Source: a virus
Length of the DNA stretch: 64,000 nt
Virus record (IMG/VR): IMGVR_UViG_3300023174_000087
Span: 51,202 to 115,201 of that record
Direction: 5' to 3' (one strand)
Shown: piece after piece, positions 15,525-55,656 of the stretch
Layout of the letters: each line of letters opens with the position of its first letter
Numbering within the stretch: the first letter of the stretch is position 1
The notes under the pieces: generated by a model
The model's input: only the letters and a program-made list of their open reading frames with translations
Told to the model about the DNA's origin: nothing
The model's database searches: none
Made by a program: the position numbers and the translations under genes

Positions 15525-15814
15525 AAAATAAAGCACAATGGTTTTTACCTATAAAAAATATGAAAAATAAAACATATTGGAATAAACCAAATACTGTTGA
15601 ATTTTTTGCTTTTGCTACAAAGTTAGTTATTATTTTTCCAGGTTTGCTTTTTGGTAAACAAATTTGGTGGCTTTATATTTTTGCACTAGCGTCAAGCCTA
15701 TCTCTTATTTGGTCTTCAACAATAAAAACTTTGCCATCTATTATTTTATTTAATATTGGTTGGTCTATCCTTGCTACTTTAGCAATTTTAAAACACTTTG
15801 GAGCAATACTATGA
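15521..15814 (+). CDS. Small membrane protein
   Basis: Three hydrophobic segments; ATGA overlaps on both sides. Confidence 0.6.
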   Translation: MKNKAQWFLPIKNMKNKTYWNKPNTVEFFAFATKLVIIFPGLLFGKQIWWLYIFALASSLSLIWSSTIKTLPSIILFNIGWSILATLAILKHFGAIL

Positions 15815-17331
15815 ACATTGTGGTGTTGGGGGGAGGGACTGCTGGATACATAAGTGCGTTAGCATTTAAAAAAAGATATCCAAACTATAATATAAAAATA
15901 GTTGATAGTTCAAAAATTGGAATTATTGGTGTTGGGGAATCAACAACCCCTCAGTTTGAAACAATGATCAAATATTTAGATTTGCCAATGAATGAATTTA
16001 TATCTGAAACTGGCGCAACTATTAAAAATGGTATAAAATTTACAAATTGGACAAATAACAAGCCACATTATTTTCATCCTTTCTATCAATATGTAGATAT
16101 GGATTATGTAACATATTTAGATAATGTTATGAAACAAAAAAACAAAGATAGTTTGGATTATACGTATAGAGATTTTAAGTTAAATGCTAATAAAGACTTT
16201 GTGCCTGTAATTATTAATGCACTATTGCTAGATGGAAACTTAGATAAAGTAAACCTACAAACAGAACTAAGTTATGAAAATAAAGTTTTAGATTCGGCAT
16301 ATGCTTGGCATATTGATGCAGCCCTAGTGATTAACTTTTTTAGAAAACATGCTAAGATAAGAGGCATTGATGTTATAGACGATGTACTCTTGAATGCAGA
16401 ATCAGATAATAGTGGCAATATTACAAAATTAATTTTAGAAAAACAGATTTTAAATTTAGACTTTGTTATAGATTGTTCTGGATTTTCTAGACTGCTTATT
16501 GGAAAACATTTTGATTCTGAACTTACCTATGTTTCAGATAGTTTGCCATGTGACAGTGGCATTGCTTTCCAGATGGATGGAGACCCAGTTCCATATACAG
16601 AAGCAATAGCAATGAATTATGGCTGGGCATGGAAGATACCTTTGCAACATAGGTATGGTTGTGGTTATATTTATGACTCAAAATACATTAATGATGAAGA
16701 TGCATTAGATGAAATTAAAAATAAGTTTGGCAATAACATACGTGTAATGAAAAACTATAAATTCAAGGCTGGATACTATAAAAAGCCTTGGGTAAATAAT
16801 TGTTTGGCTGTAGGAGTCGCAGCAAGTTTTTTTGAGCCACTAGAAGCAACATCACTTTTAAATTCAACAACCATGATTGAAATATTTTTAAAAGAATATT
16901 TTGATGAATACATAAAAGATAAAAAGAGTGTAGATTTAAATAAGTATAATAATTTAATTGAGCATAGGAATGAACACTTAAAGGCTTTTTTATATTTACA
17001 CTATACAACCAATAAAATAAATACTCCTTTTTGGAAAGACTTTAATCATTTAAATAAAATTCCAGAAATATTAATTTCTTTTATGGATGATATGAAAAAT
17101 CAATTTTATTCAAATAGTTTAATAGAAAAACGAGGTTCCATTTTTGGTTGGAGCAACTGGGCATCTGTTTATTTTGGCAATGAACTTTATGATTCAAGCC
17201 TGCTTAGTGATCAACTTGACAAAGATGGTGTAACAAGGTACAATATAATAAGAGAAAGAATAAATAAGTCAAAAAACTTAGGTATTCCAATTAAAGAATA
17301 TATAAACACACTAACAAAAAAAGGAGAATAA
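15811..17331 (+). CDS. Flavin-dependent halogenase (tryptophan halogenase family)
   Basis: GGGTAG FAD motif, GVGEST, TIKNGIKF (Lys at the catalytic position), IDCSGF, GWAWKIPL (WxWxIP), FFEPLEATS. Confidence 0.9.
   Translation: MNIVVLGGGTAGYISALAFKKRYPNYNIKIVDSSKIGIIGVGESTTPQFETMIKYLDLPMNEFISETGATIKNGIKFTNWTNNKPHYFHPFYQYVDMDYVTYLDNVMKQKNKDSLDYTYRDFKLNANKDFVPVIINALLLDGNLDKVNLQTELSYENKVLDSAYAWHIDAALVINFFRKHAKIRGIDVIDDVLLNAESDNSGNITKLILEKQILNLDFVIDCSGFSRLLIGKHFDSELTYVSDSLPCDSGIAFQMDGDPVPYTEAIAMNYGWAWKIPLQHRYGCGYIYDSKYINDEDALDEIKNKFGNNIRVMKNYKFKAGYYKKPWVNNCLAVGVAASFFEPLEATSLLNSTTMIEIFLKEYFDEYIKDKKSVDLNKYNNLIEHRNEHLKAFLYLHYTTNKINTPFWKDFNHLNKIPEILISFMDDMKNQFYSNSLIEKRGSIFGWSNWASVYFGNELYDSSLLSDQLDKDGVTRYNIIRERINKSKNLGIPIKEYINTLTKKGE
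17216..17244 (+). promoter_or_regulatory. Sigma70-type promoter inside the halogenase 3' end, facing ssb/dnaE
   Basis: TTGACA-17 nt-TACAAT. Confidence 0.55.
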
Positions 17332-36369: not shown

Positions 36370-36442
36370 TGGCCCATAACTCAGTTGGTAGAGTGCCGAA
36401 CTGTTAATTCGGATGTCCCAGGATCGAAACCTGGTGGGCCAG
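36370..36442 (+). tRNA. tRNA-Asn(GTT)
   Basis: TGGCCCA/TGGGCCA acceptor; CCGAA-CTGTTAA-TTCGG anticodon arm; T-loop ATCGAAA. Confidence 0.9.
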
Positions 36443-36470
36443 CAAATATATAGATTGGTATAATGTTTTT

Positions 36471-39407: not shown

Positions 39408-39995
39408 ATGAACAGAATTACGGTTATTGATAATTTTATAAGCGAAAAAGATGCAAACATCTTAATCTCTGAACAGTTAAACCCAAGTGAAATAAATCAA
39501 TACCCAGAGCATTATAAAAGTAGATATGGCGGAACTGCCTTTCCATATAACAATATTGTCATGAGTATTTTAAAAAAATATGGATACCTATCTAGCGCAA
39601 AACACAAAGATTTAAATTCTTTTATTAATCCTATATATGTTTTTAAAGCATTTGGTTCTTGCTGGCTTCCAGGCACAAAGGGGGAACTTCATATTGATGC
39701 ACAAGGACCAGAGCCATGGATTGAGTTTAGTACAATTATTTATTTAAATGATGAGTTTGATGGAGGAGAACTTTATTTTCCAAATCAAAACTTAGTGTAT
39801 AAACCAAAAAAATATTCTGCTGTATTTTTTCCAAGTGCTGGTTCTGAATATATTCACGGGGTAACTACTGTTTCTTCTGGAATAAGACACACCGCTTTAT
39901 ATATGCACACAAGTTTGCCAAATAACGCAGATCCTGATTTTCATCCTAATAAAGAAAACTGGAAAGCATTGGAGCACTCGCATGTTGGATTATGA
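39408..39995 (+). CDS. Prolyl-4-hydroxylase-like 2OG-Fe(II) oxygenase
   Basis: LHID; IIYLNDEFDGGELYF; HGVTTVSSGIR. Confidence 0.85.
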   Translation: MNRITVIDNFISEKDANILISEQLNPSEINQYPEHYKSRYGGTAFPYNNIVMSILKKYGYLSSAKHKDLNSFINPIYVFKAFGSCWLPGTKGELHIDAQGPEPWIEFSTIIYLNDEFDGGELYFPNQNLVYKPKKYSAVFFPSAGSEYIHGVTTVSSGIRHTALYMHTSLPNNADPDFHPNKENWKALEHSHVGL

Positions 39996-40644
39996 AATTT
40001 TAGATCTTGGCTTAGTTTATTATAAAAATATTATTAAAAATCCAGAAAAACTCATTGAAGAGATTGAGTCTTTAGATGAAAAGTATAACAATAATATTGA
40101 AAATACAAATACACTAGTTGAGCCTTGGATAAAATGGAAATACAATTCTGGAGAAAAAGAGTTAATGTTCTGTTGGCAAAAATTTATACCACAAGTAGTT
40201 GATATTCCAGATTCTGATTTATACAAAGATGAGCAAACAAGTATCTCTTCTCAATTATTTGGAGCAATAGATAAAACTTTTGATCACTATACAAAAGAGT
40301 TGTACCCATTTGCTGAAAGAAATATAAAATCTAGAGAAAAAACCATGCACTTGTTAAAATATAATACTGCTGGACACCTACCAGCACATCAAGATCAAGG
40401 TATGAGTAGCAGAGTTTTATCAGTCCTTGTTTATTTAAACGATGATTATATAGGTGGGGATATAGAGTTTAAGCATTCTGGTGTAAGAATTAAGCCAAAG
40501 GCTGGAAGTCTATTGTTCTTTCCATCAAATTTTTTGTATGTACATGAGGTCCATCCAGTATATAAAGGTCCAAGGTATGCTCTTCCTAACTGGTTTCATA
40601 ACATACCATTTGAAAACAAAAGAGACTCTAATGGTGAAGAATGA
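39982..40644 (+). CDS. Prolyl-4-hydroxylase-like 2OG-Fe(II) oxygenase
   Basis: AHQD; VYLNDDYIGG; HEVHPVYKGPRY. Confidence 0.87.
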   Translation: MLDYEILDLGLVYYKNIIKNPEKLIEEIESLDEKYNNNIENTNTLVEPWIKWKYNSGEKELMFCWQKFIPQVVDIPDSDLYKDEQTSISSQLFGAIDKTFDHYTKELYPFAERNIKSREKTMHLLKYNTAGHLPAHQDQGMSSRVLSVLVYLNDDYIGGDIEFKHSGVRIKPKAGSLLFFPSNFLYVHEVHPVYKGPRYALPNWFHNIPFENKRDSNGEE

Positions 40645-42198: not shown

Positions 42199-42747
42199 AT
42201 GGCAGAAAAAGGAACACTACAGGCAATCGTCGAGGTTGCAAAGAAAGAAATTGGAACCATTGAAGGTCCAAAAGATAATGAAACAAAATATGGTAAGTGG
42301 ACAGGGGCAAATTTCCTTCCATGGTGCCAATCATTTGTTTCTTGGTGTGCATTTACTGCAGGACTTGATGCAAAAAAGTATCCAAAAAGCGCAGCAACAG
42401 TCGCAGCATCTGATTGGTTTAAAAAGAATAACCGTTGGTCTGATGCTCGTAATGATGATCCAACTCCAGGTGATTGGATTTATTTTGATTTTCCAGATGA
42501 TGGAGTAAATCGTATTTCACATGTTGGTTTATGTATCAAGAATAACGGCGATGGAACTATCCAAGTTATTGAAGGAAACACATCTGGAACAGCAAAGGGA
42601 GATCAACGCAACGGAGGAATGTGCGTTGAAAAAACTCGTGGTTATGTAAAGAATAACAAGAAGAAATTAATCAATGCTGTAGTTGGCTGGGGTCGTCCAG
42701 TATATGTTGGAGAAGAAGATGCTCCATTGTTAAATAAGGTTAAGTGA
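42199..42747 (+). CDS. CHAP-domain endolysin/amidase
   Basis: PWCQSFVSW; PTPGDW; SHVG; IEGNTS. Confidence 0.85.
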   Translation: MAEKGTLQAIVEVAKKEIGTIEGPKDNETKYGKWTGANFLPWCQSFVSWCAFTAGLDAKKYPKSAATVAASDWFKKNNRWSDARNDDPTPGDWIYFDFPDDGVNRISHVGLCIKNNGDGTIQVIEGNTSGTAKGDQRNGGMCVEKTRGYVKNNKKKLINAVVGWGRPVYVGEEDAPLLNKVK

Positions 42748-42965
42748 TGGAATCAAACAAAAGAAGTTTATATAAATCAATTACTTGGCCAGCAGTGCAT
42801 ATTGGATTTGTTGGCACACTAATATATTTCTTTGAAAAAGCAATTACTGGAGAAGCACACTGGGAATACGCTGGATCATTTGCATTAATTTATACAGTAT
42901 GCGAAATGATTGGTTATTTTTTACATGAAAGAGCATGGTCAAAATTTGGAAAAAAGATAAACTAA
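42747..42965 (+). CDS. DUF2061-like membrane protein
   Basis: ESNKRSLYKSITW...YFLHERAW. Confidence 0.75.
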   Translation: MESNKRSLYKSITWPAVHIGFVGTLIYFFEKAITGEAHWEYAGSFALIYTVCEMIGYFLHERAWSKFGKKIN

Positions 42966-44506: not shown

Positions 44507-44535
44507 TTGACATACTGGCTGTAGTAGTATATAAT
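44507..44535 (+). promoter_or_regulatory. Consensus sigma70 promoter
   Basis: TTGACA-17 nt-TATAAT. Confidence 0.8.
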
Positions 44536-44567: not shown

Positions 44568-44819
44568 ATGTTTACAATGATTAAAGACGAAGTTAAGCAG
44601 GAGTGGCAACTATCTCCACAGGATCGTTGCGATAAATGCAACGCTGAGGCTTTAGTAAAAATTACTGGAATTAGTGGAGACCTTTTGTTTTGTGGTCATC
44701 ACTACAATAAGATAATGTCTATTCCAGATGGATACAATAGCATGATGTCTTTCATGATTAGCATTGTTGATGAACGAGAAAAACTTGTTGAAAACAAGTC
44801 AAAGGGTAAGGACTACTAA
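44568..44819 (+). CDS. Small actinobacterial-type Zn-binding protein
   Basis: DRCDKCNAEALV..LLFCGHH..IVDERE. Confidence 0.65.
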   Translation: MFTMIKDEVKQEWQLSPQDRCDKCNAEALVKITGISGDLLFCGHHYNKIMSIPDGYNSMMSFMISIVDEREKLVENKSKGKDY

Positions 44820-45580
44820 TGATTATTCAGATTATCGGTCTTCCAGGTTCTGGGAAAACAGAATTAGCGAAGGCATTAAAAGAACGTATTAACGCTATCC
44901 ATCTCAATGCAGATGAGGTTCGTGCAACGGTAAACTCAGACCTGGGGTTTACACCAGAGGATCGACTTGAACAGGCCCGTCGCATGGGAGAGATGGCTCG
45001 CCTTATCTCTAAGCAGGGGGTTGCTCCAGTAATCGTGGACTTTGTTTGTCCTACAGAATTAACTCGTGCAGCATTTGGAAAGCCAGATGTTCTTGTCTAT
45101 ATGGATACAATTAAAGAAGGTCGTTTTGAAGATACAAACAAGATGTTCGAAGCACCTACAGAGTATGATTGGTCATTTTTAAATCACACGATAGATCCAA
45201 ATGAAAAGTCTTCTATCCTTATTGAAGAGTTTGGACTACATGATTGGTCAGCACCCACAACGCTAATGCTTGGTCGCTACCAGCCATGGCACGAAGGTCA
45301 CCATGCTCTCTACAAAGAAGCGGGAAAGAGAACAGAGCAGGTACTGCTTGGAGTCCGTAATACATACAACACAAGCGAAAAGGATCCGCTTACCTTTGAT
45401 CAAGTAAAGGGTTACATTGCTAAGGACGATTTTATGGATGGTGCATTAGTACTAAGACTACCCAATATAACAAATATTGTATATGGTCGTGATGTAGGAT
45501 ATAAGATTGAGCAAGTAGATTTAGGGGCAGATATTCATGCTATTTCTGCAACGGAAAAGCGTAAAGAACTAGGAATCTAG
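44819..45580 (+). CDS. cysC: Adenylylsulfate (APS) kinase fused to an HxGH nucleotidyltransferase domain
   Basis: GLPGSGKT; LNADEVR; DLGFTPEDRLEQARR; FVCP; FEAP; C-terminal GRYQPWHEGH..ISATEKR. Confidence 0.8.
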   Translation: MIIQIIGLPGSGKTELAKALKERINAIHLNADEVRATVNSDLGFTPEDRLEQARRMGEMARLISKQGVAPVIVDFVCPTELTRAAFGKPDVLVYMDTIKEGRFEDTNKMFEAPTEYDWSFLNHTIDPNEKSSILIEEFGLHDWSAPTTLMLGRYQPWHEGHHALYKEAGKRTEQVLLGVRNTYNTSEKDPLTFDQVKGYIAKDDFMDGALVLRLPNITNIVYGRDVGYKIEQVDLGADIHAISATEKRKELGI

Positions 45581-46218
45581 TGTTGTACTCGTCAGACCAC
45601 AAGTTTTTATTAATTAAAAACATGAAGGTTGGAAGCACATCCTTAGAGGTAGAACTTTCTAAAATTTTACCAAAGAATGCCATTGTTACAACGATTAATC
45701 CTCCAAACATGAGTCATCAGCCTAGAAACTATGGAGAGTTTAGGAATCATGAATCATTTTCTAGTATTTCATCAAAGATTGATCTATCTGGTGTAACTTC
45801 CTATGTCTTTGTAAGAAACCCTTATGAGTGTGTGTTGTCAGATTTTTTCTTTAGGCCAGACATTAAAAAACTTTCTAGTCAGTGGGAGTCTATCAAGAAG
45901 TATGAAAGAATAAAAATGGTAGACAACTACTTTAAAGGAAAACTAACATATGGGCCTTTCATGAGAAGTACAAAAATGCTTTACTCTGATGGAAACACTG
46001 TGCTTGTAGATCATTTGTTGAGGTATGAAAATGGTATAGAAAGTGAAATAAATAAATTTTTACCAATACATGGACTACCTACAATTACTATTAACACTTT
46101 TGAAAAGGCTCATAGGCCCAAACATATTATATATAGTGACATATTTACCAATAATCAAAAAGAACAAATTCAAGAGGAGTGGTTTTGGGAATTTGACAAC
46201 TTGGGGTATAATAGATAA
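45580..46218 (+). CDS. Sulfotransferase (Sulfotransfer_2-like)
   Basis: IKNMKVGSTSL (5'-PSB loop); FVRNPYECVLS (3'-PB motif); LRYEN. Confidence 0.75.
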   Translation: MLYSSDHKFLLIKNMKVGSTSLEVELSKILPKNAIVTTINPPNMSHQPRNYGEFRNHESFSSISSKIDLSGVTSYVFVRNPYECVLSDFFFRPDIKKLSSQWESIKKYERIKMVDNYFKGKLTYGPFMRSTKMLYSDGNTVLVDHLLRYENGIESEINKFLPIHGLPTITINTFEKAHRPKHIIYSDIFTNNQKEQIQEEWFWEFDNLGYNR

Positions 46219-46782
46219 ATGATAACAAAAAAAGAAGAAAGTTTTAATTTTAATTTTATTGGCTCTTACAATGTGTCTAATATTAATAAAATTATTGAGA
46301 CTTTTTCTAATGAGTGGACATTAAATACATCAAGACAGTCGATGTTTGATGAAACACATAAATATACAAATACATACTTTCTTCGTGTACTAGACAATAA
46401 ATGGGAACCAAACCAAGAACTAAGATCTTTTCCAATTGCAACAAATACACAACTTCTTGCAGAAATAGATACAATTGTTGCAGATCTTGAAAAGTATCAC
46501 AATGGCAAATGTGGCGCAGCAATGATTGTTAAACTATTTTCAGATAACAATGTTTTGCCACATTCAGATAATTCCCCATACCTGTCTGCAGCAAGAAGAC
46601 ATCATATACCGTTAAAAACAAATAAAGATGTTATATTTTTTGTAGGAGATGAAACAATGCATTTAGGTGTAGGGGAATGTTGGGAAATAAATAATAACAA
46701 AATCCATGCAGTGACAAATCATTCAGAAGAGGATAGGATACATTTAATAATTGATATTATTCCTAATAGGTTTATTAAATGA
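46219..46782 (+). CDS. Aspartyl/asparaginyl beta-hydroxylase-like 2OG oxygenase
   Basis: PHSD; RHHIPL.TN; GECWEINN..HAV.N..DRIHLIID. Confidence 0.85.
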   Translation: MITKKEESFNFNFIGSYNVSNINKIIETFSNEWTLNTSRQSMFDETHKYTNTYFLRVLDNKWEPNQELRSFPIATNTQLLAEIDTIVADLEKYHNGKCGAAMIVKLFSDNNVLPHSDNSPYLSAARRHHIPLKTNKDVIFFVGDETMHLGVGECWEINNNKIHAVTNHSEEDRIHLIIDIIPNRFIK

Positions 46783-46893
46783 TAATTTTAAAAATATTTA
46801 AATTTATTTTTCTGCAATTTAAAAAATCTTCAAAAGGAATTGCAGATGCAGAAGACAGATTTGTAGCATCTATGTTTAAAGAAAAGGATAAAG

Positions 46894-47097
46894 ATGAAAG
46901 TAACTAGGCAAAGATCATTTGTTAAATCTTTAAGTTATCGTGTATTTGGCACTCTGTCATCATTTGTAGTTGCATATGTAATTACTGGTAAGGGCAGTCT
47001 ATCTGCTCTAATTGCTATGTGGGAAACAATAGTTAAGGTTGGAATTTACTATTGGCACGAAAGAATTTGGGATAAAATTCGTTGGGGGAGAAAATAA
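46894..47097 (+). CDS. DUF2061-like membrane protein
   Basis: RSFVKSLSYR..YYWHERIWDKIRWG. Confidence 0.85.
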   Translation: MKVTRQRSFVKSLSYRVFGTLSSFVVAYVITGKGSLSALIAMWETIVKVGIYYWHERIWDKIRWGRK

Positions 47098-49562: not shown

Positions 49563-49801
49563 TGTATACTGAACAAAATAAAAAAGCATTTCACTCTCTT
49601 TCACATTATTCACCAAAAGGCTTTGCTTTGCAAATAGTTGATAATGAGAATTTTTTAACAGTAAAAGCAAATGAAAAACAGTTTATGATTTTGTCTGATG
49701 ATGGCAAAAGACAAGCAATAGAGTACATGGCAAGAGTGAAAAAGGCGCTTGAAGATACAGGAGCAATTGTGCTTCTTGTTAGAGAGGGTGGAAAAGAATA
49801 A
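49562..49801 (+). CDS. Hypothetical protein
   Basis: Coupled ORF. Confidence 0.55.
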   Translation: MYTEQNKKAFHSLSHYSPKGFALQIVDNENFLTVKANEKQFMILSDDGKRQAIEYMARVKKALEDTGAIVLLVREGGKE

Positions 49802-50448
49802 TGGATATAGAAAAATTTAGAAAGCATATTGATTTAGAAAAAGATGAAGTTTATATAAACAATGTTGCAAAATTGGGAAGTTCTGCAAAAAATGTATATG
49901 TTGTAGATAATTTTTTATCTAATGAAGAGCATCAATCATTATATAACTTTGTAAATAATAATGATCAGATTTCTTGGATTAAAGAGCCATGGACTACAGA
50001 AAGAACTCCAAAAGACTCAATTCCAAAAGACATTATGAAACTTTTAGAAAAAATATTTAAAACTAGCAGATTAAAATGTATAAATTATTATGATATAGAA
50101 GTAGACGATAATTTTATCGGCGAATATCTTTTAACAAAATGGAGCAGTGGAGATGTAATGCAACCACATGTGGATACAGATTCTCAAAAACATCAACATA
50201 TTGTTTGTATGTACTATATCAATGATGAATACGATGGGGGAGAACTTGTATTTCCAGACTATAATTTAAAAATTAAACCTAAGTCAAATAGTTTGATTAT
50301 GTTCCCTGGTAATGAAAACTACCTTCACGCAGTACTTGAAGTTTCAAAAGGTTTTAGATATACTTTTGGTATGAGGTTTGCTTTTTCAGGATCTAAATTT
50401 TTAGGATCAACTGGAATTAGGGAATGGGCGGAAAAAAACTATGGCTAA
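49801..50448 (+). CDS. P4H-like 2OG-Fe(II) oxygenase
   Basis: PHVD; YYINDEYDGGEL; FPGNENYLHAV..GFRY. Confidence 0.87.
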   Translation: MDIEKFRKHIDLEKDEVYINNVAKLGSSAKNVYVVDNFLSNEEHQSLYNFVNNNDQISWIKEPWTTERTPKDSIPKDIMKLLEKIFKTSRLKCINYYDIEVDDNFIGEYLLTKWSSGDVMQPHVDTDSQKHQHIVCMYYINDEYDGGELVFPDYNLKIKPKSNSLIMFPGNENYLHAVLEVSKGFRYTFGMRFAFSGSKFLGSTGIREWAEKNYG

Positions 50449-50502
50449 CTTAATTTTTACATGTGATAGAGGCGCAATTTTTAGTAAAGTTGGAAAAGAA
50501 AA

Positions 50503-50919
50503 ATGATTTTAACAATATTTTTAGTAATTTTAATTAGCCTTTTAACATCTTTGTCTGGTTTTCTTGGTATAAAGATAATCATAATGAAAAACTATGTTGC
50601 AGAATTAAATCTTAGGGTTGCTTTAACAGAGCAAAAAATTAAAGATCAGTTTGAAAATGACCCTGGTTTAATAGAAAATACGGAAGGATTTCTTCGTTTT
50701 ATCTCAGAGTCTCGTGACTGGGCGTTTAAATATATAGAAAATGTTCAATTTGTGCTTAATAAATTTATTAAAGATATTGAGCCAGAGATTAATTATTTTA
50801 AAGAGTATGGGGATCTTGGTTCAATGGCACCTAACTACTACTCTATGAAAAAAATTACTGGGGAATATGAAGAGTTAAAGAAACTACTTCCAGAAGACTA
50901 TGGTAGAATAGATACATGA
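50503..50919 (+). CDS. Membrane-anchored hypothetical protein
   Basis: N-terminal TM; FISESRDWAFKYIE. Confidence 0.6.
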   Translation: MILTIFLVILISLLTSLSGFLGIKIIIMKNYVAELNLRVALTEQKIKDQFENDPGLIENTEGFLRFISESRDWAFKYIENVQFVLNKFIKDIEPEINYFKEYGDLGSMAPNYYSMKKITGEYEELKKLLPEDYGRIDT

Positions 50920-51524
50920 TTACTAACCCTTCAAAAAAAGATGACATCTATTTAAAAAATGTTGAAAAAATAGGAAAATCTCCAGAAAACATAAAGTTTA
51001 TAGAGGATGTACTATCTAAAGAAGAACATGCAACTTTGCTTGATTACGTAAATAAGCGTGAGTTGTGGATTCTTGAGCCTTGGGATTGCTATTCTGTTGG
51101 TATGGATCAGTTACCAGTTAATATTTTAAATATGCTAGAAAAAATATTTGCTATTGTTCACAAAAATGCTACAGAGGCTTATGGAGTAGACATTAATTAT
51201 TTTCAAAAAGAAAATATTGCATTATTTAAATTTGCAAAAGGTCTTGTTTTGCATCCACATATAGATACTGATTCCGCCGAATCAAACCATATTGCTTCAA
51301 TATATTATATTAACGATGAGTTTACTGGTGGCGAATTGTATTTTTCAGAACTTGATATAAATATTAAACCAAAGCCAAACAGTTTAGTATTTTTCCCTGG
51401 CAATGAAAACTATTTGCATGAAGTCAAAACAATTACAGGTGGAAATAGATATAGTTCGTCAATGTGGTTTCAGTTTACTGGTTCTTCTTTTAACAAGAAT
51501 GCAGAATGGTACAATAAAGAATGA
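50916..51524 (+). CDS. P4H-like 2OG-Fe(II) oxygenase
   Basis: PHID; YYINDEFTGGEL; FPGNENYLHEV..GNRY. Confidence 0.87.
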   Translation: MITNPSKKDDIYLKNVEKIGKSPENIKFIEDVLSKEEHATLLDYVNKRELWILEPWDCYSVGMDQLPVNILNMLEKIFAIVHKNATEAYGVDINYFQKENIALFKFAKGLVLHPHIDTDSAESNHIASIYYINDEFTGGELYFSELDINIKPKPNSLVFFPGNENYLHEVKTITGGNRYSSSMWFQFTGSSFNKNAEWYNKE

Positions 51525-52096
51525 TTGAAATTACCTCAGAAAATTCTATAGATAACATACAGGTTGTAGAAAATGTTTTACTAGAAGAAGAGCACAAAAA
51601 ATTGCTTGATTATGTAGTTAATGTTGAGGGGTGGCAAAAACAGCCTTGGGGTGTGAAGTTTTTTAATTCTGAAAAAGGACTATCTTCGGAGATTTCTGAC
51701 ATATTAGACAAGGCTATTCGAATTGCTTGGCAAAAATGTATAGATAAACATAATGTAAAACTTCGTGTTTTTGAAAAATCAGAAGTTCACTTAGTTAAAT
51801 TTGAAAAAGATTATTTAATGAACAAACATGTAGACACGGCTGGAGATTTTGCAGTTATTTATTATATTAATGATAACTACGATGGAGGAGAAATAAATTT
51901 CCCATGGCATAATTTAACAGTTAAGCCAAAGGCTAATAGTTTTATTTTATTCCCTAGCAACGAGCATTATTTGCATGAAGTGTTAATAAATAGTGCAGAT
52001 AGATACTCATCTCCTTTGTGGTTTAATATTGAAGGCACTCCTTATCGTGGAAATATAAATGAAACAGAAGGAACCGCTAGGACTGTTCAATATTAA
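51521..52096 (+). CDS. P4H-like 2OG-Fe(II) oxygenase
   Basis: KHVD; YYINDNYDGGEI; YLHEV..DRY. Confidence 0.87.
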   Translation: MIEITSENSIDNIQVVENVLLEEEHKKLLDYVVNVEGWQKQPWGVKFFNSEKGLSSEISDILDKAIRIAWQKCIDKHNVKLRVFEKSEVHLVKFEKDYLMNKHVDTAGDFAVIYYINDNYDGGEINFPWHNLTVKPKANSFILFPSNEHYLHEVLINSADRYSSPLWFNIEGTPYRGNINETEGTARTVQY

Positions 52097-55200: not shown

Positions 55201-55203
55201 TTG

Positions 55204-55274
55204 CTTCCAGACATAGACTCGAACTATGATTCACGCCTTCAAAGGGCGTTGTCCTGCCATTGGACGATCTGGAA
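55204..55274 (-). tRNA. tRNA-Gln(TTG)
   Basis: TTCCAGA/TCTGGAA; ACGCC-CTTTGAA-GGCGT; TTCGAGT. Confidence 0.88.
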
Positions 55275-55278
55275 CTAG

Positions 55279-55351
55279 TATCCCCAACGGGATTCGAACC
55301 CGTGTTGCCACCGTGAAAGGGTGGAGTCCTAGGCCTCTAGACCATGGGGAC
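55279..55351 (-). tRNA. tRNA-Glu(TTC)
   Basis: GTCCCCA/TGGGGAT; CCACC-CTTTCAC-GGTGG; TTCGAAT. Confidence 0.92.
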
Positions 55352-55352
55352 T

Positions 55353-55426
55353 TGGAGCGAGTGACCAGAATCGAACTGGCACAACCAACTTGGAAGGATG
55401 GTGCACTACCATTATGCAACACTCGC
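55353..55426 (-). tRNA. tRNA-Gly(TCC)
   Basis: GCGAGTG/CACTCGC; loop CTTCCAA; CCA end encoded. Confidence 0.9.
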
Positions 55427-55430
55427 TTTG

Positions 55431-55503
55431 TACCCCTGGCAAGAATCGAACTTGCGACGCATGGCTTAGAAGTCCATCGTTCTGTCCACTGAACTACAGA
55501 GGT
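55431..55503 (-). tRNA. tRNA-Arg(TCT)
   Basis: ACCTCTG/CAGGGGT; loop CTTCTAA; TTCGATT. Confidence 0.9.
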
Positions 55504-55507
55504 TTAG

Positions 55508-55578
55508 TAGGCCTAGAAGGTAATGCTCCTTCTTCTCAGGATTAAAAGTCCTGAGCATCACTTTAATGCTTTAGGCCC
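55508..55578 (-). tRNA. tRNA-Lys(TTT) with non-canonical D and T loops
   Basis: GGGCCTA/TAGGCCT; CAGGA-CTTTTAA-TCCTG; T arm GAAGG-AGCATTA-CCTTC. Confidence 0.75.
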
Positions 55579-55582
55579 ATTG

Positions 55583-55656
55583 TACACCAGGTAGGACTTG
55601 AACCTACGATCTTCAGTATATAAGACTGATGCCTTAACCGACTTGGCTACTGGTGC
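55583..55656 (-). tRNA. tRNA-Ile(TAT)
   Basis: GCACCAG/CTGGTGT; TCAGT-CTTATAT-ACTGA; TTCAAGT; discriminator A. Confidence 0.85.

Follow-up and report, generated by a model that had tools for sequence, protein, structure and literature searches.

The locus described here raises the question of what a small phage protein makes when it joins a kinase resembling adenosine 5′-phosphosulfate (APS) kinase to an HxGH nucleotidyltransferase (NTase) and its gene runs directly into that of a sulfotransferase. The protein of 253 amino acids (aa) is encoded at 44819-45580 (+) of a 64,000-nt window, which is the whole stretch of DNA that we analysed and the right-hand 64 kb of the 115-kb IMG/VR virus record IMGVR_UViG_3300023174_000087, rated complete by CheckV. 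A sequence-only reading of this window had pointed out the open reading frame (ORF) with its GLPGSGKT, DLGFTPEDR and GRYQPWHEGH motifs, all of which are in place, and had proposed that the small HxGH domain is a non-canonical ATP sulfurylase that feeds the sulfotransferase together with the APS kinase. Genomic context lends support to this proposal in the form of domain fusions, shuffled neighbourhoods, co-occurrence and the displacement of sat beside aprBA in SAR11. From that context, and with a probability that we put at roughly 70%, the fusion is a miniature bifunctional synthase of 3′-phosphoadenosine 5′-phosphosulfate (PAPS), in which a non-canonical sulfate adenylyltransferase and an APS kinase make PAPS for the phage sulfotransferase.

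The two domains were assigned from the translation with Pfam and NCBIfam models. Because the protein matches at least 7416 clusters at E ≤ 1e-3 in a database of 5.8 billion proteins, and because PHROG 10255 spans its entire length with 210 bits, the fusion is not a chance ORF. The NTase has three kinds of partners, namely APS kinases (short or canonical), AprBA and sulfotransferases, and CysN is linked to it through the DUF2061 family. The sole metabolite that all these partners have in common is APS, and the reaction most simply proposed for the NTase is therefore the reversible conversion of ATP and sulfate into APS and pyrophosphate (PPi). We found no paper that describes APS-kinase/nucleotidyltransferase fusions of phages or SAR11.

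The N-terminal half is a shortened APS-kinase-like domain (residues 1 to about 118; 44819-45172, +) with the P-loop GLPGSGKT followed by NADEVR, DLGFTPEDR, FVCP and RFEDTNKMFEAP. Residues 2-85 match Pfam APS_kinase (PF01583) with 56.4 bits against a cut-off of 21.1 and cover profile positions 4-91 of 152. The best matches among solved structures and protein families are APS kinases, with E = 1e-9 for the APS kinases of the PDB and 1.8e-18 when a profile of the family is used. In an alignment of 48 diverse homologues, D32, R35, F44 and R49 are invariant or at least 90% conserved, and they align with Asp480, Arg483, Phe492 and Arg497 of Mycobacterium tuberculosis CysC, in which Asp480, the second Asp of the LDGD motif, is the proposed base for the 3′-OH, Arg483 and Arg497 bind the phosphosulfate and Phe492 stacks on the adenine of APS (PMC4373884). 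The lid segment RDPK is deleted: compared with P0243, a homologous fusion with a canonical kinase, about 14 residues are gone between strand 4 and RF..EAP, and there is no equivalent of RDPKGLYKKAR. Because this segment is gone and the score against the NCBI equivalog model TIGR00455 (apsK) is 57.5 bits, under the cut-off of 138.7, the kinase half is not a textbook CysC. Judged by its residues, it looks like a 3′-kinase whose substrate is an adenine nucleotide bearing an anionic group at the 5′ position, and the conserved R102 might stand in for the lost lid residues.

The C-terminal half is a minimal HxGH NTase domain of about 110 aa (residues about 146-253; 45254-45580, +), in which GRYQPWHEGH is followed by VRNT, PNIT, YGRDVGY and ISATEKR. 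The last of these, which the sequence-only reading had passed over, is the second signature of HxGH nucleotidyltransferases. Matches to family models are weak: Pfam CTP_transf_like covers residues 150-188 with 18.6 bits, and the NCBIfam models of nicotinamide mononucleotide adenylyltransferase (NMNAT) cover residues 149-206 with scores far under their cut-offs (NF002243, 25.4 versus 127 bits; TIGR01527, 18.7 versus 181.2 bits). A profile of the NTase family reached the archaeal or NadM-type NMNATs (1f9a, E = 2.7e-11) and matched no Sat domain in a search of solved structures. The domain is the stripped core of an NMNAT-like fold and by profile not a homologue of Sat. The sequence-only reading had remarked that GRxQPxHxGH is more typical of NMNATs and cytidylyltransferases, and the nearest relatives are NadM-type NMNATs. 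Its "minimal, non-canonical ATP sulfurylase" is supported as to "non-canonical" and fails in the sense of a pared-down Sat, since the domain derives from NadM-type NMNATs by sequence and PF01747 gave no match.

Among the 48 homologues, G223, R224 and R248 of the NTase are invariant, and conservation is 90% or higher at R153, Q155, P156, H158, H161 and R180. The HXXH motif is present as HEGH. R180, in the segment VR-(D/N)-T, is specific to the family; NMNATs have G-S at this place after strand 2. The invariant G223-R224 lies in the YGRDVGY loop after strand 4. The motifs of Sat are QXRN, HXXH and VGRDHAG (PMC6607087), and the YGRDVGY loop is comparable to the VGRDHAG loop in its position after strand 4, a likeness that is suggestive and not diagnostic.

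An AlphaFold2 (AF2) model of residues 136-253 had a predicted local distance difference test (pLDDT) score of 91.1. VIA-align placed this model closest to NMNAT 1f9a (Z 8.9) and phosphopantetheine adenylyltransferase (PPAT; Z 8.8), followed by cytidylyltransferases (Z 7.1-7.7) and ATP sulfurylase 1v47 (Z 7.6, root-mean-square deviation 3.4, 111 of 118 residues aligned), with other Sats at Z 4.7-6.1; NMNAT and PPAT matches, at Z 8.7-8.9, thus score higher than any Sat. Foldseek returned nothing below E = 1e-3 with the same model and no ATP sulfurylase in its top rows; Sat was seen in the wide VIA search only. Because NMNAT, PPAT, cytidylyltransferase and Sat all align, the NTase belongs to the HxGH superfamily but its substrate is not readable from the fold. 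The structure comparison with Sat and NadM that the sequence-only reading had called for, run on the AF2 model, thus bore out membership in the superfamily and left Sat, NMNAT, PPAT and cytidylyltransferases unseparated. Against 1f9a, 107 residues of the model stand opposite 134 residues of the 164-residue chain; the NTase is about 22 residues shorter between strand 3 and the ISxT motif, ends 5 residues past ISATEKR and has lost the C-terminal subdomain. In NMNAT, the shortened region carries the nicotinamide-contacting residues.

The sulfotransferase gene (45580-46218, +; 212 aa) starts with a GTG whose first base is the last base of the fusion stop codon TAG (45578-45580), so that the junction reads ...atc TAG TG ttg... 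and the overlap of stop and start reported in the sequence-only reading amounts to the single shared G. The protein stays under the Pfam cut-offs (PF00685, 18.4 versus 22 bits; PF03567, 15.4 versus 22), weak Sulfotransfer_1 and Sulfotransfer_2 matches recur across the family (in 16 and 19 of its 45 members, respectively), and a profile of the family reached no solved structure by sequence, so that it was identified by fold search alone. With an AF2 model of pLDDT 95.3, Foldseek gave PAPS-dependent sulfotransferases only, among the 50 matches listed (best E = 6.8e-5), and VIA-align likewise gave sulfotransferases only, among the 50 matches listed, with heparan sulfate 6-O-sulfotransferase at Z 9.1 (172 residues aligned) and StaL at Z 8.4. 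K13, K16, G18 and S21 of the 5′-phosphosulfate loop (K-x-x-K-V-G-x-T/S-S) are at least 90% conserved among 45 homologues, H57, R79, P81 and S87 are invariant, and the R...S that binds the 3′-phosphate is present. H57 would be the structural equivalent of the catalytic histidine. On the strength of the predicted fold and these conserved residues, we accept that the protein is an enzyme of the sulfotransferase fold and that its motifs for PAPS binding are intact.

The next two genes, which had been read as an AspH-like hydroxylase and a DUF2061 protein, both match Pfam above cut-off. The first (46219-46782, +) encodes an AspH-like 2-oxoglutarate/Fe(II) oxygenase of 187 aa (PF05118, Asp_Arg_Hydrox, 53.5 bits, cut-off 22.6), whose translation contains the iron triad as H-S-D (PHSD) and a distal H (IHAV). 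Its homologues adjoin the fusion in 13 and the sulfotransferase in 26 related viral loci. The second (46894-47097, +) encodes a DUF2061 protein of 67 aa (PF09834, 64.6 bits, cut-off 23.1).

To view the fusion in other phages, 83 loci, consisting of 80 related viral loci and three reference loci, were scanned for 6 kb on each side, with crude ORF calls in the fetched sequences. DUF2061 accompanies the fusion in 66 of these loci, mostly directly downstream, and the sulfotransferase in this set was found in the genome of the present phage only. Because of these two counts, the conserved phage core is the fusion plus DUF2061. The sequence-only reading had put the sulfotransferase forward as the partner of the fusion; the conserved phage partner is DUF2061 instead, and a sulfotransferase is found in a minority of the related phages. 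Among 70 viral loci that contain the sulfotransferase homologue, the fusion lies within 5 kb of it in 39, in at least four gene orders (AspH-sulfotransferase-fusion-DUF2061, fusion-DUF2061-sulfotransferase, sulfotransferase-AspH-fusion and sulfotransferase-fusion-DUF2061). In three of five further sulfotransferase-bearing records, including the only complete one among them, the fusion is encoded elsewhere in the record.

The domain architecture varies as well. In P0243, an NTase 52% identical to that of our phage is fused to a canonical CysC (TIGR00455, 233.6 bits versus the cut-off of 138.7), and in P0248 the domain order is reversed, with the NTase preceding the short kinase. A further phage lineage (L237:5001-7998) has, in this gene order, a sulfotransferase, an AspH-like protein, a methyltransferase-like protein, a 2-oxoglutarate oxygenase and a kinase-only protein of 139 aa without the NTase; kinase-only versions also occur in Ralstonia phages. 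In Xylella phage Sano (L001, 5553-5996 and 2199-2876), a NADAR-domain gene stands directly upstream of the fusion homologue, which is annotated "kinase", and a gene annotated as cysteine dioxygenase stands 3 kb upstream. Neither the annotation nor the sequence around the fusion homologue shows a sulfotransferase.

The fusion is also common in Alphaproteobacteria. Within 2.6 kb of 30 alphaproteobacterial loci outside SAR11, five neighbouring ORFs belong to Sulfotransfer_3 and five to Sulfotransfer_1, which are the commonest families other than TPR. In SAR11 single-cell genomes, the fusion is found in glycan islands together with epimerases, glycosyltransferases and Sulfotransfer_1 genes. We searched 151 Pelagibacteraceae genomes, with NTase carriers defined at E ≤ 1e-30. 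The fusion is present in 13 of them, and in many more the kinase and the NTase are encoded by two neighbouring genes or the NTase is found by itself. Of the 71 genomes with the NTase, 48 have Sulfotransfer_1, compared with 20 of the 80 that lack it (odds ratio 6.3, Fisher p = 2.5e-7; as with the other SAR11 co-occurrence statistics, phylogeny and genome completeness are ignored). Among carriers of at least 1.2 Mb, a sulfotransferase was present in 22 of 22. Canonical Sat was found in 5 and true CysD in 9 of the 151 genomes, and 45 genomes have a sulfotransferase and the NTase without a canonical ATP sulfurylase (Sat or CysD). In one SAR11 genome (G131) the sulfotransferase gene ends one base before the start of the fusion, and in another (G133) a sulfotransferase stands beside CysD-CysNC.

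The NTase also occurs in SAR11 beside genes of sulfite oxidation. In the SAR11 genome G044 (L271:4996-5373 and neighbours), and likewise at L270 and L272-L275, a stand-alone NTase of 126-130 aa is located directly upstream of the apr cluster, in the order TENA/haem-oxygenase-like gene, NTase, 264-aa ORF, AprB, AprA, 116-aa ORF and TauE sulfite exporter, preceded by a major facilitator superfamily transporter and a Cys/Met pyridoxal-phosphate enzyme. The 264-aa ORF has no Pfam match, holds the position of AprM and is a putative aprM. In 27 SAR11 genomes the NTase, the pair or the fusion lies 1.1-3.6 kb from aprB. The NTase was present in 53 of the 58 genomes with aprB (odds ratio 44, p = 3.7e-19), and Sat or CysD in 3 of the 58. 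In Allochromatium vinosum, sat is immediately upstream of, and co-transcribed with, aprMBA (PMC3779200). A preprint on sponge symbionts states that "most SAR11 lack ATP sulfurylase" (10.1101/2022.09.23.509140), and according to a 2026 preprint, which lists sulfotransferases among the SAR11 genes of hypervariable regions, assimilatory sulfate reduction is absent from 135 complete Pelagibacter genomes (10.64898/2026.04.03.716430).

In a group of complete SAR11 genomes (L164-L169, e.g. L166:7276-8054), separate and overlapping genes for a kinase (135 aa) and an NTase (124-135 aa) form a conserved locus. It extends from a Rieske ring-hydroxylating oxygenase to an enoyl-CoA hydratase, a CoA-binding protein, a YeeE-like Sulf_transp protein with DUF6691 and a dimethylglycine-dehydrogenase-like gene, and variable genes are inserted directly 3′ of the NTase.

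DUF2061 connects the fusion with the canonical enzymes of sulfate activation. A genome search showed that in Alphaproteobacteria this domain is fused C-terminally to CysN (L195:106-1671) and to CysN-CysC (L187:1-1701), and these fusions provide what may be a first functional hint for DUF2061. Because its neighbours in Alphaproteobacteria are otherwise heterogeneous, adjacency alone tells little there. When the set of 5.8 billion proteins was searched for DUF2061 proteins of greater length, the one match was uninformative, the prediction of a complex between the fusion and DUF2061 scored 0.00, a value that weighs neither for nor against binding, and no description of a DUF2061 function was found in the literature. 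The window contains a second, divergent DUF2061 gene (42744-42965, +; 73 aa; PF09834, 36.2 bits) 1.9 kb upstream of the fusion, which recurs in 27 related loci.

From the observed domain identities, conserved residues, folds and patterns of fusion, neighbourhood and co-occurrence, we infer the catalytic steps and the nucleophile as follows. The C-terminal NTase would use sulfate as the nucleophile on the α-phosphate of ATP, yielding APS and PPi. The short N-terminal APS kinase would then phosphorylate the 3′-OH of APS to give PAPS and thereby pull the unfavourable first step forward. The translationally coupled sulfotransferase would use PAPS for the O-sulfation of an acceptor, which is possibly hydroxylated by the adjacent AspH-like oxygenase, and DUF2061 may act as an accessory small subunit of sulfate-activating enzymes.

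Several results weigh against a PAPS synthase. On the side of the NTase, the nearest relatives by sequence are NMNATs rather than Sat, PF01747 has no match at E ≤ 1 across the whole phage genome, and the stand-alone orthologue of SAR11 scores 16.7 bits on this model with a cut-off of 24.3. The sulfate-binding QXRN of Sat is not conserved as such, and the NTase has the NMNAT-style GRYQ in its place. The fold scores of the predicted model do not separate Sat from NMNAT, PPAT and cytidylyltransferases. In the kinase half, the first Asp of the LDGD motif is an Asn (NADEVR), and the deleted lid carries the Lys and Arg with which canonical APS kinases close over ATP. Context is also uneven: most fusion-bearing phages have no sulfotransferase within 6 kb on each side, the neighbour in Xylella phage Sano is the NADAR-domain gene, and the split pair of many complete SAR11 genomes is far from both apr and sulfotransferase genes. 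To these is added the reservation on the SAR11 co-occurrence statistics given above.

Four other explanations have to be weighed. The kinase could be a genuine APS kinase that receives its APS from host Sat or CysDN or from AprBA, with the NTase serving as a regulatory or nucleotide-binding module or acting on AMP, 3′-phosphoadenosine 5′-phosphate or another adenylate. Such a division would suit the phages in which a kinase-only protein accompanies the sulfotransferase and the AspH-like protein (L237), the kinase-only Ralstonia phages and the ability of AprBA itself to form APS from sulfite and AMP; however, phages lacking the NTase are equally expected where hosts supply APS, and in the apr cluster of SAR11 the NTase stands by itself in the sat position with no kinase there. 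Because the catalytic signature residues (HxGH, ISxTxxR and the GRD arginine) are invariant or nearly so, the NTase is predicted to be an active transferase, and a different role for it seems unlikely. A donor other than PAPS would involve the same chemistry, an NTase followed by a 3′-kinase of the APS-kinase type, with a 3′-phospho-nucleoside-5′-diphospho-X as the product in which X is not sulfate (e.g. phosphoramidate), or with selenate or another oxyanion. Campylobacter offers a precedent in Cj1416, an HxGH cytidylyltransferase, and Cj1415, a CysC-like CDP-amidate 3′-kinase, and neither sequence nor fold of the NTase reveals its substrate. The partner transferase, however, has the fold and the PAPS-binding motifs of a sulfotransferase, the links to AprBA, CysN-DUF2061 and canonical CysC are specific to sulfate and APS, and the commonest neighbouring families contain no glutamine-kinase-like or amidohydrolase-like genes, all of which makes another donor quite improbable.

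An enzyme of NAD salvage, consisting of a nucleoside or nucleotide kinase and an NMN adenylyltransferase with NadR-like logic, would account for the closeness of the NTase to NadM and archaeal NMNATs and for the NADAR-domain gene directly upstream in phage Sano. We consider it very unlikely, since the scores are far under the NMNAT cut-offs, the domain stops right after ISATxxR with about 22 residues fewer than 1f9a before the motif, the kinase matches APS kinases best and keeps the phosphosulfate-binding arginines, and the commonest neighbouring families include sulfotransferases and AprBA but no NAD genes. The sequence-only reading had itself named NMNAT and cytidylyltransferase as alternatives, and neither gained ground in our analysis. 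The logic of an adenylyltransferase followed by a 3′-kinase is also that of eukaryotic CoA synthase, with a PPAT-like half and a dephospho-CoA 3′-kinase; PPAT ranks near the top of the fold matches (Z 8.8), and an enoyl-CoA hydratase and a CoA-binding protein stand beside the split pair of SAR11. Yet the links to sulfotransferase, AprBA and CysN would be left unexplained. Because canonical CoaD (above cut-off) and CoaE are already encoded in all five of the five complete pair-bearing SAR11 genomes tested, we give this explanation almost no weight.

Returning to the fusion as a PAPS synthase, it is probable, if somewhat less so than the function proposed for the phage protein itself, that the NTase family (about 110-130 aa, derived from NMNAT) adds to Sat and CysDN a third class of ATP sulfurylase, one of minimal structure. 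This NTase would be the missing enzyme to close AprBA-dependent sulfite oxidation and supply PAPS for the sulfation of surface glycans in SAR11, and aquatic phages would carry the NTase and the trimmed APS kinase with DUF2061 as a portable module for sulfate activation. If this is true, a minimal NMNAT-like scaffold under a third of the size of Sat has acquired ATP sulfurylase activity, and the 253-aa fusion is the smallest known PAPS synthase. DUF2061 would be assigned to a pathway, and phages, abundant as they are in lakes and oceans, would be seen to bring sulfate activation and sulfation into cells as well. For enzymatic sulfation, so compact a source of PAPS could be of use. SAR11 are the most abundant marine bacteria. 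For them a gap would be filled, as they have AprBA and many sulfotransferases yet are mostly without ATP sulfurylase (10.1101/2022.09.23.509140).

Upstream of the fusion, a small DUF7455 protein (44568-44819, +; PF24254, 50.8 bits) is encoded by a gene that ends on the base with which the fusion gene starts (44819), and 31 of the 83 scanned loci likewise have DUF7455 close to the fusion. The 63-nt gap 5′ of this gene contains a perfect promoter-like site (TTGACA-17-TATAAT, 12/12; 44507-44535, +), a possible start of the operon. Because the region as a whole has no more promoter-like sites than expected from shuffling, we single out only this perfect intergenic match.

The phage has a G+C content of 33% and a DnaE-type polymerase that is closest to those of Streptomyces phages. 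A megablast search of the region against the phage collection gave zero matches and a tblastn search with the major capsid candidate gave none either; by these searches, the phage is without a close cultured relative. Elsewhere in the window are a cluster of six tRNA genes (Gln, Glu, Gly, Arg, Lys and Ile-tat; 55203-55656, −), a lone tRNA-Asn gene (36370-36443, +) and a 523-aa ORF (15760-17331) that matches a PHROG family annotated as tryptophan halogenase (E = 2e-101), an unusual phage cargo. At 39408-40644 and 49801-52096, five or more paralogous ORFs (each about 190-220 aa) resemble prolyl hydroxylases and 2-oxoglutarate oxygenases (pattern ...HxD...GGE..F...KPK.G....FP....H.V.), and together with the AspH-like gene they make the region unusually rich in oxygenases.

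Among known systems, NadM and the archaeal NMNATs (1f9a, 1ej2, 2qjt) are the closest relatives of the NTase in sequence and fold and share GRFQPxHxGH, an NPFT-like segment and ISxTxxR with it. The NTase differs in its length (about 110 versus 168-181 aa), in having R-(D/N)-T instead of G-S and an invariant GRD loop, in the loss of the C-terminal subdomain and in its genomic partners, which are sulfur enzymes and not NAD enzymes. In Campylobacter jejuni, the CTP:phosphoglutamine cytidylyltransferase Cj1416 and the CDP-amidate 3′-kinase Cj1415 show that an HxGH NTase and a CysC-like 3′-kinase can build a PAPS-like donor; they are encoded by separate genes, need a glutamine kinase and an amidohydrolase, and donate phosphoramidate. 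Such glutamine kinase and amidohydrolase partners were not seen among the commonest neighbours of the NTase.

The stand-alone NTase of SAR11 sits in the same place as sat in the sat-aprMBA cluster of A. vinosum (PMC3779200), directly upstream of the putative aprM, aprB and aprA, although its gene product has 126-130 aa and is by profile no homologue of Sat; the phage has no apr genes, and its NTase is fused to the kinase. CysDN and CysNC (NodPQ) catalyse the pathway step proposed for the NTase and likewise have DUF2061 as a fused or adjacent partner, and the sulfotransferase-CysD-CysNC cluster of G133 parallels the sulfotransferase-fusion cluster of G131. In contrast, CysD, which is driven by the GTPase CysN, belongs to the PP-loop ATP pyrophosphatases and is not homologous to the NTase, and the phage system contains no GTPase. 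The known PAPS synthases and Sat-CysC fusions, as in human PAPSS1 (1x6v), Aquifex aeolicus (2gks) and Penicillium chrysogenum (1i2d), have about 550-630 aa compared with 253 in the phage. Their transferase belongs to PF01747, whereas that of the phage falls outside this family, lacks the PUA-like domain and QXRN and has an NMNAT-like core, and the phage kinase lacks the RDPK lid segment. Both domain orders are found in nature. Like these enzymes, the phage fusion combines an adenylyltransferase of the HxxH superfamily with a homologous P-loop kinase of the APS-kinase type in one polypeptide, and PAPS for sulfotransferases is its proposed product.

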